NCBI GenBank assembly: GCA_963575745.1
Contig: CAUYUJ010000114.1
Coordinates: forward strand, 806,001-870,000
Reading direction: 5' to 3'
Source of the DNA: Prorocentrum cordatum
Lineage: Eukaryota
Length of the DNA: 64,000 bases
The position numbers and the translations under genes were made by a program. Below, in pieces: positions 1,010-54,930 of this stretch. The notes under the pieces were generated by a model. The model did no database searches. It worked only from the letters and a program-made list of their open reading frames with translations, and was not told the origin of the DNA. Within the stretch, counting starts at the first letter, position 1. The number at the start of each line of letters is the position of its first letter.

Positions 1010-1068
1010 GGCGCACCGCGCCGGTCCCCGGGCCCGGGATGGGGCCCGGCCACACGATCGGCGAACAG
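1010..1068 (+). CDS. Weak candidate exon (GAPRRSPGPGWGPATRSANR)
   Basis: Unique island between repeats, AG|G acceptor, GG donor. Support is phase compatibility with 1701 only. Confidence 0.25.
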
Positions 1069-1137
1069 GGCTCGAGCTAAACGGTGTTTCGGCAGTTTCG
1101 TGGACCGTTCTCGTTTTGGCTTCGTTTTGCAGCAAAC

Positions 1138-1299
1138 TCAGGAGGGAAAGAAACACACAGACACAATTCATCGTCGACTTCCAGGAAAATATGGGAAAAT
1201 ATCGGAGATGGGGGGAAGACAAAAACCCCGAAAATATAGGCAAATATGGGGAATATTTTTATTTGTGTCTATTTATTTGTGTGTCCCAGTTCCCCTTCA
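1138..1299 (+). mobile_element. Short interspersed element family A (about 162 bp), copy 1
   Basis: tcaggaggg..acacagacacaa ... ttgtgtgt..ccttca, TSD caaac/cagac. Ten copies in the window. Confidence 0.85.
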
Positions 1300-1364
1300 C
1301 AGACGTGGAGCGAAGACAGGACGAAAGCAAAACGAAAACGGAAAACACTACTGTCGGCCCAGGG

Positions 1365-1500
1365 TAGTAGGTCGACCCTGCCAGCTCAAGGGTACCCTTG
1401 TGTCCTGTGCCTCGCGGCACGTGCCTTCTTGCACTCCTACGGCGGTGTGACCCTTGGAAGGGTCTTGTGTCCTCTCGCGTGTCCTGTCCAATCATCAGAG
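1365..1500. repeat. Dispersed repeat L, second copy at about 7110-7240
   Basis: agtaggtcgaccctgcca...gggtaccc...ggaagggtcttg.gtcctctcgcgtgtcctg is shared. Confidence 0.75.
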
Positions 1501-1700
1501 CTTGAATTACCTACCCCGGTTTCGCTTCCAGGCAAAACCAAGCCATACCACGCGCCTCCTCGTCAAGCGGCCTGACCAGTACAGGCCGTAGTTTGGCATC
1601 CTTTGGTATCTTTTGGAAGCGAGGGTGGTCAAAAGCGAGGTATGTTTGTTTTCCCCCCAAATCAAGGCCGACTGTGTTTCTCTCGAGCCCCGTCGGCGAG

Positions 1701-1746
1701 GTGGTCCGCGGACGCCGCCCGCAGTCTTGGCGATCACTGCTCCAAG
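1701..1746 (+). CDS. Weak candidate exon (WSADAARSLGDHCSK)
   Basis: gcgag|g acceptor, aag|gg donor, phase 2 to 0. Confidence 0.3.
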
Positions 1747-1801
1747 GGGGGGGGGCCGTTCGGGGCGCGGCCTCCCGAGCAGGCGGGGGTCGGAGGTTGA
1801 G

Positions 1802-1962
1802 TTCAGTCGGGCCCGTCCCTTTACAGGAGGAAAGTTCAAAAATGGCAAAAAAAATAGTATGGGGACGATGTTCTGAGTATTTTTGACCTTTTGTGAATAT
1901 TTGTTTGTCCATGTTCAATTCTTCCTCAAAAATCCCCCTGTAGGGGGACAGGCCCGACTTAA
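1802..1962. mobile_element. MITE family C (8-bp TSD, hAT-like length)
   Basis: TIR ttcagtcgggcc.gtccc..tacag / ctgta..gggacaggcccgacttaa, TSD aggttgag/agcttgat. Confidence 0.82.
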
Positions 1963-2024
1963 AGCTTGATAGACCTCCTACCCTGACACGTCGATTATGC
2001 CCAGCCCCGCCGACAGCTCTGCGT

Positions 2025-2176
2025 TGAAGTCGGGCCTGTCCTACTACAGATGGAAAATTCAAGAATAGTCAAAAATAGTCTGGGACCGATTTTGAGATTT
2101 TTTTTTGACTATGTTTCTGCATCTGTTTTTTATTTTTCGTCCAAAATCCGCCTGTAGGAGGACATGCCCGACCTAA
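2025..2176. mobile_element. MITE family C copy
   Basis: TSD ctctgcgt/ctcgacgt. Confidence 0.82.
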
Positions 2177-52493: not shown

Positions 52494-52650
52494 CCGGAGG
52501 GCAAAACACACAGACACAACTAGTCATCGATTCCTCGAAAATTTCGGGAAATATACGAAGTGGGGCTGAAGGCGAGAATGCAGAAAACATTGGAAAAGGA
52601 ATCTTGGGATTTGTGTCTATTTATTTGTGTGTGTGCCCCAGGGTCCCCGG
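52494..52650 (+). mobile_element. Family A copy, diverged, 3 nt after a splice donor
   Basis: Colinear with the family and starts immediately after cag|gat. Confidence 0.75.
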
Positions 52651-52820
52651 GGGGGACACACACCGATTCGGATAATCACCCTTCTCTCGTTCTCGTCGTG
52701 TGGGGCGTCCTCTGCGAGGTGTGCCCTCGCCACCAAGGCTGGATTGCCCTAGGCTGGTCAGAGCGCGCCCCCAAAGAGGTCCGACACATGCGGTGTAGGT
52801 ATCGTTCTGCCCCCCTCGAG

Positions 52821-52935
52821 GAGCGTTTCGACCTGGTGCGCAGGGAGGTCGAGGACCCCGTCGCCATCGCCAACAGTGATTTCCGTCCGAGCACTGGAAA
52901 CGAGCAGGACTACTTGACCTGGCACTACTGCGACG
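52821..52935 (+). CDS. GT8 gene exon (ERFDLVRREVE...GNEQDYLTWHYCD)
   Basis: ctcgag|gag acceptor, GC donor gacg|gcgc, phase 0 to 1. EQDYL corresponds to the GT8 DQxxLN motif. Confidence 0.88.
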
Positions 52936-53091
52936 GCGCTCGAAGAGGAGGAAACCGCATCAACAGAAGCCTTCGGAGTTCCGCGCGGATCTCTTGAGTC
53001 GGCGCCGGATCCCCCTGGTGGCGCTTCCGGCACCGCCCATGCAGGGGCTCCCAAACCGTTCAGTGACCGCACCGTGTGGTGAGCCCCAGTG

Positions 53092-53465
53092 TCGGGCCGG
53101 ACGAAAGTGGGGGATTGGGAAAGGGGGGGTTACGAAATCTGCTGCATGCAGCTGGTTTCGGCCCCGCCGCCGGGCCCATTCCTCGATGCATGGGCGCCTC
53201 CCGGCGCCGGAAGGCGCCGGGAAAATCAGCTACGTGAGCTGATTCTCAAATTCCCCCTCTGCAGGAGGGAAAGAAACACACAGACACAATGAATCGTCGA
53301 CCCCCAGGAAAATATGGGAAAGTATGGGAAGTGGGGGGGAAGACGGACACCCAGAAAATATGGGAAAAGATGGGGAATAATTTTATGTGTGTGGCCCTTT
53401 CACCTTCGCTATGGGAAAATATGGGCCCCTTCACCTTTGCTATCCCCCCCTTTCGCCCAGCCCGA
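53092..53465. mobile_element. MITE family I copy with nested family A element
   Basis: Perfect TSD cagtg, interrupted at 53261-53433. Confidence 0.85.
53261..53433 (+). mobile_element. Family A copy nested in family I
   Basis: TSD cctct/ccttt, with a short local duplication at the right end. Confidence 0.8.
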
Positions 53466-53869
53466 CAGTGGACCTCCGGGGTGGCCGGACGGTCTCGGGG
53501 CTCTTGGGCCGCTCTCCGAGGAGGTCCCCGGGGCGACACTGGGGCCTCCGAGGGCCCCAAAAAAGCGGTTCGGCGGACGGGCCTGTTTTCCACCACCGCC
53601 ACCATAAGTTGGAGGGGGGGAAGGAGGTGGAGGAGGAGGAGGAGGACGAAGAGGAGGAGGAGGAGGAGGAGGAGGAGGAGGAGGAGGGAGGAGGAGGAGG
53701 AGGAGAGGAGGAGGAGGAGGAGGAGGAGGACCCCCTCCCCCTCCTACTCATGGCAGTGGCGGTGGGGAACAAGCCCACCAGCGGCGACGGTCCGTGCGGT
53801 GAGGTCTCTTCGCGGAGTGCGAGGTCACCGCGCGGCCGGTCACCGCACTGCGTTTTCGGACCCCCAGAG

Positions 53870-54094
53870 TTAGTGGGGTCGGGCACGTCCCCCTACAGAC
53901 GGATTTGGGACGAAAAAATTTAAAAATAGCCCAAACATGTTCAAACATGATCAAACATATTGCAACAATCGTCACCCGACTATGTTTCATACTATTTTGG
54001 ATATATATATATATATATGTATATATATATACATATATATATATATATATATATATATTCCCGCCTGTAGAGGGACAGGGCAGGCCCGATTTAA
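53870..54094. mobile_element. MITE family C copy with internal (TA)n expansion
   Basis: TSD ccccagag/ccccacag, (TA)n at about 54001-54058. Confidence 0.78.
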
Positions 54095-54191
54095 CCCCAC
54101 AGGGATGGGGGGGGGTCCAGCTCCGACCCGGGAGGCCCGCGCGGACCCCCGGAAGCTCGTGCTCTCTGGCATGTGTGCCCTTCGTCCCCAG

Positions 54192-54297
54192 GCCTGCTGG
54201 AGGAGGACGGCCACGCCTCGGTGTGGACGCACCTGGGCTGCGAGTACAACTTCGAGGTGCACGACCCCGGCAAGTACTTCGCAGTCGGCAGGGAGAG
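54192..54297 (+). CDS. GT8 gene exon (GLLEEDGHASVWTHLGCEYNFEVHDPGKYFAVGRE)
   Basis: cccag|gc acceptor, ag|gt donor, phase 1 to 2. W..L...YN is a conserved GT8 motif. Confidence 0.88.
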
Positions 54298-54699
54298 GTG
54301 CCAGGCCTCCCGAATGGGCGCTTCTGGGAGGAGGAGGAGGAGGAGGAGGAGGAGGAGGAGGAGGAGCCCCGAGCCCCGAGCCCCGCAGAGCTGTCGTCTC
54401 CCTGTGGTGCGACGTGTGCTTCCTGCCGGCCCTCCGCCAGCGGAGGGGCGCCCCCGTCTTGCCTCCGCCGCACCTCTGCCGCCCCGAGATGCACCTCTTT
54501 CGATCCTCGAAGGCGGGGCCCCGTCCCCGACGGCGCCGACGCGTCGCGGGCCTCGCCGATGCATCGGCGGTGCATCGGCGATGCAGAGGCGATGCGGCGC
54601 GATCTTATGGCTCCACGGCGATGCAGAGGCGATGCAGAGGCGATGCAGAGGCGATGCAGAGGCGATGCGGCTCGGGCCCCATGTGGGAGGCCTTCCGAG

Positions 54700-54930
54700 G
54701 TGGCTGTGGATGGACTACCGCAACGACGCCGCCGTGCTGCACTTCAGCGCGCTGTTCCGGAAGTGTGCCAAGCGCCTGATTCGCGAAGAGGACTCGCCCC
54801 GGCTGCACCACAGGCCCGACGTGGAGAACTGCCGCGTGGCGTTCGCCGAGAGCGTGTGGGACGAGGAGGTGGAGCACCTGGGCAGGGAGGCCGCGGCGAG
54901 AGGGTACGATCTGAGGGAATGGCTGGGCAC
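54700..54930 (+). CDS. GT8 gene exon with VLHF motif (3' end uncertain, about 54889-55090)
   Basis: ccgag|g acceptor, phase 2. Reads RWLWMDYRNDAAVLHFSALFRKCAKRLIREEDSPRL...VWDEEVEHLG. VLHF matches the GT8 C-terminal His motif and third positions are GC-rich. Confidence 0.8.

Follow-up and report, generated by a model that had tools for sequence, protein, structure and literature searches.

The stretch analysed here (the window) comprises 64,000 nucleotides (nt) of Prorocentrum cordatum (GenBank assembly GCA_963575745.1, contig CAUYUJ010000114.1, positions 806,001 to 870,000 of the forward strand), and all coordinates below are positions within it. It holds a gene that spans at least 55 kb, with 12 supported exons in the window and a continuation past the exon at 54700. 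This single spliced gene almost certainly fuses two cysteine/histidine (Cys/His) modules to a glycosyltransferase domain of family GT8. A preliminary description, made from the sequence, had presented the gene as hidden and assembled it from 23 islands. The gene is already annotated in NCBI, without a functional name: a sequence search with the exon at 52176-52490 retrieved 18 proteins among 103 candidates, the top match (P0001, 100% identity) being a 796-residue unnamed NCBI model from Prorocentrum cordatum. The remaining 17 matches were 65-75% identical across this exon, and overall identity among the 18 family members is 46-59%. These 17 homologues of P0001 are presumably dinoflagellate proteins.

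All supported exons lie on the + strand, and the corrected 12-exon chain is an open frame from 7520 to 54932 or 54933. The core of module 1 (VLG..TGFPS.THCC) is encoded at 7520..7567, an exon supported by homology only. The exon at 11134..11217 carries the end of module 1 (C..PGRHGPRC) and the start of module 2, which continues at 21532..21600 (GC..Y.VTG..THCC..C), both supported by homologues, and ends at 25248..25307 (PGEHSRGC), whose direct join to 38668 is found in two spliced contigs. A 52-nt linker exon follows at 38668..38719, matched by contigs X1 and X15 with no mismatch. The exon at 42299..42441, joined directly to 38719 in contigs and also supported by homologues, encodes a low-complexity linker and the start of GT8 (CAYVTLLYG). 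The GT8 domain continues through a 29-nt exon at 50521..50549, supported by contiguity with homologues, and exons at 51181..51268, 52176..52490 (315 nt, with the DxD motif YLDSD and GIQGGV), 52821..52935 (GNEQDYLTW), 54192..54297 (GCEYN) and 54700..54933 (HFS, whose His is predicted to bind metal; the donor lies at 54932 or 54933). Homologues support each of these, and the 315-nt exon is supported as well by Pfam PF01501 and by its presence in RNA runs.

At the 5′ end, the acceptor at 7520 (AG/G, the slash marking the splice site) is preferred, not proven, over that at 7487 (AG/A); the proposed exon 7487-7567 is supported only in its 7520-7567 part, and the module profile match does not extend across 7487-7519. 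Neither the first CxxC of module 1 nor a start Met was found in 1-7520. A CPSC at 6164 was considered as the missing CxxC and rejected, because it sits where a dispersed repeat ends and lacks an AG/G-type join to 7520. The donor originally placed at 11220 was moved to 11217 (GC), which yields CPGC as in the homologues. Spliced-leader sequence gave 0 matches in the window at up to three mismatches.

The join between the modules and GT8 was examined in four sequencing runs (X1, X3, X15 and X21), which were compared with 38560-38800 only. X1, a polyA RNA-seq contig of 978 nt (depth 9.8), and X15, a 2241-nt contig (depth 12.7) from another study, both cover 38668-38719 with zero mismatches. The 30-letter loose ends of these contigs match 25273-25302 upstream and 42301-42330 downstream, so 25307 is joined to 38668 across an intron of 13.4 kb and 38719 to 42299 across one of 3.6 kb, direct joins that were seen in two of the four runs. 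X15 extends 253 nt upstream and, by length arithmetic and not by alignment, reaches the 7567 exon if the three intervening exons take up 213 nt of this. Downstream it extends 1936 nt past 38719, compared with 1029 nt for the GT8 exons and ~1809 nt for a homologue-like coding remainder; on length arithmetic only, this fits the GT8 exons plus a C-terminal domain. The GT8 exon 52176-52490 itself was present in 18 of the 24 rows listed (six studies, two on record as RNA). A 38-nt intronic piece at 38597-38634 was matched at 90-95% identity by reads and contigs of X21, X1 and X15 whose loose ends are foreign to the locus, and is likely a dispersed repeat transcribed elsewhere.

Transcripts ending at the TGA at 39785-39787 had been named beforehand as the sign of two tandem genes. 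That arrangement is rejected: the contigs splice 25307 to 38668 to 42299 across this TGA, and since they join 38719 to 42299 it lies in a spliced-out intron. The claim that the Cys/His repeats and GT8 form one protein of about 700 residues is borne out both by these splices and by five homologues that carry both repeats and GT8. The remainder of the 23-island assembly fared unevenly. All the islands are where they had been placed, each behind an AG, and they join without stops in frame 0 into 730 residues. As one gene, 12 of the 23 are supported by homology and/or contigs, seven are skipped and four are without support. Five proposed linker exons (27770, 28109, 29028, 33162 and 38183; 27770..38390, + strand) are intronic in the contigs seen, two more (39693-39782 and 42015-42092; 39693..42092, + strand) are skipped in them, and four proposed 5′ exons (1010, 1701, 3568 and 6158; 1010..6224, + strand) have no homology support. 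Compared with the 66 fetched proteins, the 11 segments unique to the 23-exon model gave no match at E<0.01. The long Cys-rich N-terminus shrinks accordingly, from ~415 residues before GT8 in that model to ~130-150 in full-length homologues.

Stop-free phase matching alone is no evidence for an exon here, because open candidates between an AG acceptor and an AG/G arise by chance in thousands: 6,255 (from 339 acceptors) in 25308-37900, 4,342 in 38720-42298 and 2,221 in 1-7486. The six GG donors of the 23-exon model all fall in unsupported or corrected exons. Junction microhomology is 2-10 nt at supported joins and 2-4 nt at joins found only in that model, ranges that overlap. A codon and splice-site score gave 10.1-32.5 for true exons, a range reached by three segments peculiar to the 23-exon model (10.5, 11.2 and 12.6), but the scorer is dominated by simple repeats in its background and is therefore weak evidence. 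A minor isoform that includes any or all of the seven extra linker exons is highly improbable, as is an origin of the contigs from a processed gene copy at another genomic locus. Assembled contigs do lose rare isoforms and variants, and 42015-42092, which is phase-symmetric (1/1) and codon-like, with an AG/G acceptor, a GC content at third codon positions (GC3) of 0.88 and a score of 12.6 at the low end of true exons, is a candidate that could be a rare cassette or a decayed exon. However, the direct joins appear in two studies, the homologue linkers are 41-59 residues long, 38183-38390 has a GC3 of 0.54 and a score of -38, and chance candidates are as abundant as stated.

The single-gene structure is mirrored in the homologues, whose N-terminus, where complete, consists of two ~35-residue Cys/His modules and a 41-59-residue linker; the distance from the last HG..C to CAYV falls in this range in all ten proteins having both. 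Both modules are complete and accompanied by GT8 in five of the 17 homologues (P0003, P0007, P0009, P0011 and P0013, of which P0007 and P0011 are near-identical), and in the alignment all five start with MQCPGC. Others keep less: half a module remains in P0010, an HG..C tail in P0015 and P0016, and a remnant in P0014.

The protein continues past the 54700 exon, the last one of the 23-island assembly. A further conserved domain, overlooked there, starts near 62057 and runs out of the window; its first exon (62057..62247, + strand, AHAAVF..FEAFVSNC) is supported by homologues and has a likely donor CAG/GC at 62247 and an uncertain acceptor. The later motifs of P0001 are absent from the window, and exons after 62247 fall beyond 64000. 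In the family, the conserved block after GT8 is split by a variable insert and marked by FEA..NC, GPPWG (17/18) and a terminal W.F...P.H (13/18). No match to this C-terminal domain was found in Pfam or the ESM Atlas. Within the variable insert, six of the 18 proteins (P0001 at residues ~660-700, P0002, P0006, P0014, P0017 and P0018) share the motif RR.HP.DP.G..YT..EF..F. P0001 and the corrected model agree in locus, in the same 12 exons and in the same two direct joins. They differ in segments present only in P0001 and without counterpart in homologues, namely its first ~23 residues, an FMFIAVVSALL stretch and an insert of ~65 residues after SNC, all of which are probably mis-spliced. Across 62057-62296, P0001 reads through the likely donor at 62247 and adds ~65 residues found in no homologue; its first 11 residues here likewise lack a counterpart.

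The 11 supported introns use GA (4), GC (4) and GT (3) donors, all acceptors are AG/G, and mean intron length is ~4.2 kb. The available text of the genome report puts the mean intron of Prorocentrum cordatum at 4709 bp and the exon number at 11.7 per gene, with donors of 24.7% GT, 51.4% GC and 23.8% GA, from a pipeline that permitted only these donors (PMC10666404). The length of the gene, its intron sizes and its non-GT donors are thus ordinary for the species. Direct repeats of 10 nt at the 38719/42299 junction and 7 nt at 25307/38668 resemble target-site duplications of transposon-made introns. Very long intronic trinucleotide arrays occupy 17630-20765, 30021-31735 and 44214-44860 (~1,030 GTA, 570 TAC and 215 CAT units), and 36866-37759 and 55957-57240 hold tandem arrays whose repeat units measure ~188 nt and 146-163 nt.

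GT8 motifs had been reported in the final exons, and they are present. Only one of 13 exon translations gave a significant family in a Pfam scan, 52176-52490 passing PF01501 (E 1.7e-7, 31.5 bits, cut-off 24.3); P0001 scores 35.2 bits against the same cut-off, and all eight proteins scanned pass. YLDxD, G[IL]QGGV, GNEQDYLTW, GC[EQ]YN and H[FY]S occur in all 18 family members. In a PDB profile search the nearest solved sequences were glycogenin-1 (E 2.5e-10) and the Skp1 alpha-galactosyltransferase Gat1 (6mw5, E 9.6e-7); glycogenin-2 and the GT8 entry 5gvv (E 0.03) matched as well. The domain is probably an active enzyme. The opposite view, that it is a catalytically weak or dead scaffold binding a sugar or nucleotide, draws on a comparison with the related protein P0066: GINAGV and HFSGTGVKPW there correspond to GIQGGV and HFS...K.A in the family, with Q in place of N and the KPW ending lost. 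It is nevertheless very unlikely, given that DxD, EQD, YN and the His are invariant in 18/18 proteins of 46-59% overall identity. The Q-for-N exchange and the lost KPW point to a distinct specificity.

The Cys/His module follows the pattern C-x(1-4)-GC...[HY]CC-x2-C...H-x(2-3)-C and is repeated up to eight times within a protein. An alignment of 23 proteins shows C, C, CC, C, G and C of the first module as invariant and its His as conserved in at least 90%; from its six Cys and two His, each unit is predicted to hold one or two zinc sites. A profile built from five homologue N-termini was run against 1.84 billion sequences and retrieved 50 cluster representatives at E<=0.001, of which P0038 is probably a chance cysteine-rich match. 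No entry in Pfam, NCBIfam, PDB or the ESM Atlas names the module. Its PDB sequence matches (E>=0.08) were taken as chance, and ESM Atlas scores were <=0.76. No Pfam zinc-finger family was detected in eight family members (E<0.5), 46 new module carriers (E<0.001) or ten proteins (E<1). A structure model of the fragment P0021 has a mean predicted local distance difference test score of 65.6, higher across the modules, with little regular structure; Foldseek gave no match with the module model, and VIA rows fell only on the trailing helix. No Pfam model thus covers this small, reusable module. Its Pfam partners among the 46 carriers are F5/8C, sulfotransferase, LRR, UCH (USP), PhyH and AMP-binding, one each, and PB1, weakly, in four.

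Considering these partners together with the sequence pattern, the modules are predicted to act as protein-docking fingers, at about even probability. The company of PhyH, sulfotransferase and AMP-binding metabolic enzymes would also suit another role. GT8 includes small-molecule and oligosaccharide transferases, and a soluble enzyme of this kind, resembling galactinol synthase, with the modules as a metal or redox sensor, would need no leader peptide. It is an unlikely alternative, since galactinol synthase is not among the 21 PDB matches.

We propose, with the chances about equally for and against, a cytosolic Mn2+- and uridine diphosphate (UDP)-sugar-dependent transferase whose zinc-binding modules dock it on a protein acceptor. 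One gene almost certainly places two Cys/His modules, GT8 and the conserved C-terminal domain in one protein. No hydrophobic stretch was found in the first 40 residues of the six proteins checked, which fits a cytosolic enzyme. From what is known of the GT8 family, it would adopt a GT-A fold, use Mn2+ and a UDP-sugar, and carry out retaining alpha transfer; from their pattern and partner domains, the modules, predicted to bind zinc, would hold it on its acceptor.

Several observations weigh against this proposal or the gene structure beneath it. Eight of the 17 homologues begin at or within GT8 without a module remnant, and module-less forms are possible. These calls are likely truncated: P0021 has both modules, and the 38 residues it shares with the start of P0017 are identical, which makes at least one of the eight a truncated call. 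On the transcript side, X15 is not on record as RNA, X3 has no contig on the linker exon 38668-38719, and the raw-read run X21 has no read on it (~12/100 of the run was read); no contig was traced as one molecule from module 1 through to the DxD exon. The GT8 match is limited to the N-terminal half of both the Pfam and the glycogenin profile, and the differences from P0066 may alter catalysis. Zinc binding of the modules is a prediction from their pattern, 36 of the 46 new carriers lack any Pfam partner at E<0.001, and the PB1 and UBA matches among carriers stay below Pfam cut-offs.

These results define a GT8 subfamily that is conserved and contains two domains lacking annotation; the subfamily and the module would both be simple to express and assay. 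Should the module prove to be a docking finger, it would give access to many protist proteins without annotation and to dinoflagellate cytosolic glycosylation. We found no description of a dinoflagellate glycogenin or GT8 protein, or of a zinc-finger-fused glycogenin, in the literature searched, which covered few subscription journals; two papers listed on glycogenin and GT8 concern other lineages, and no dinoflagellate paper was among the ten listed for NBR1 and PB1.

Among known systems, the module carriers recall p62/NBR1-type autophagy receptors, which have a PB1-ZZ-UBA architecture. P0022, P0024, P0027 and P0032 show a weak PB1 followed by a Cys/His module, and in P0019 weak PB1 and UBA-like matches flank eight modules. 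P0019 resembles p62/NBR1 in these ends, a likeness that does not concern the gene described here, whereas the carriers differ in having no Pfam ZZ match and a module with its own spacing. The PB1-module proteins are possibly p62/NBR1-like receptors with a non-ZZ finger. It is a doubtful further step that the module, with the pattern C-x(1-4)-GC-x-[FY]-x-VTG...HCC-x2-C...HG-x2-C, is a mobile protist zinc finger which replaces ZZ in receptors of the PB1-UBA type and is also carried by a deubiquitinase, and that its fusion to GT8 marks a glycosylation of proteins in the cytosol that is linked to their ubiquitin-dependent turnover and distinct from the Skp1 pathway.

Glycogenin-1 (GT8; PDB 3u2t and others) is the best PDB sequence match; the family differs from it in its two N-terminal Cys/His modules and C-terminal domain. 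A Tyr ten residues downstream of the YN-motif Tyr (Y387 in P0001) is invariant in 18/18, and we take the glycogenin acceptor Tyr to lie after the YN motif too. In glycogenin the acceptor Tyr is near the active site (bioRxiv 10.1101/764241), and dinoflagellates store starch (bioRxiv 10.64898/2026.09.25.754361). The protein might then be a glycogenin-like self-glucosylating primer of cytosolic starch, with modules and C-terminal domain tethering it to starch synthase or the granule. We consider this improbable: the glycogenin match is weak and confined to half the domain, H-x-S sides with Gat1 and not with glycogenin, and Gat1, a closer glycogenin relative, showed no autoglycosylation and no effect on starch in the available text of its report (bioRxiv 10.1101/764241). 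In the available text of the dinoflagellate starch preprint, the three mentions of glycogenin concern cryptophytes and red algae, and GT8 is not mentioned (bioRxiv 10.64898/2026.09.25.754361).

Gat1, the Skp1 alpha-galactosyltransferase of Toxoplasma and Pythium (PDB 6mw5), resembles the family in being a glycogenin-related GT8 protein of an alveolate lineage that is cytosolic and has DxD plus His and H-x-S (bioRxiv 10.1101/764241). In Pythium Gat1, Asp117, Asp119 and His231 bind Mn2+ and Ser233 replaces a glycogenin Leu (bioRxiv 10.1101/764241). H-x-S is found in 18/18 family members, like the Gat1 Ser and unlike glycogenin H-x-L, a correspondence matched by motif and not by alignment. Orthology is unlikely, because the family matches Gat1 only at E 9.6e-7, whereas BLASTP values among Gat1 hits are below 1e-32 (different programs; bioRxiv 10.1101/764241). 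Gat1 is moreover a single catalytic domain (bioRxiv 10.1101/764241), to which this family adds the Cys/His modules and the C-terminal domain.

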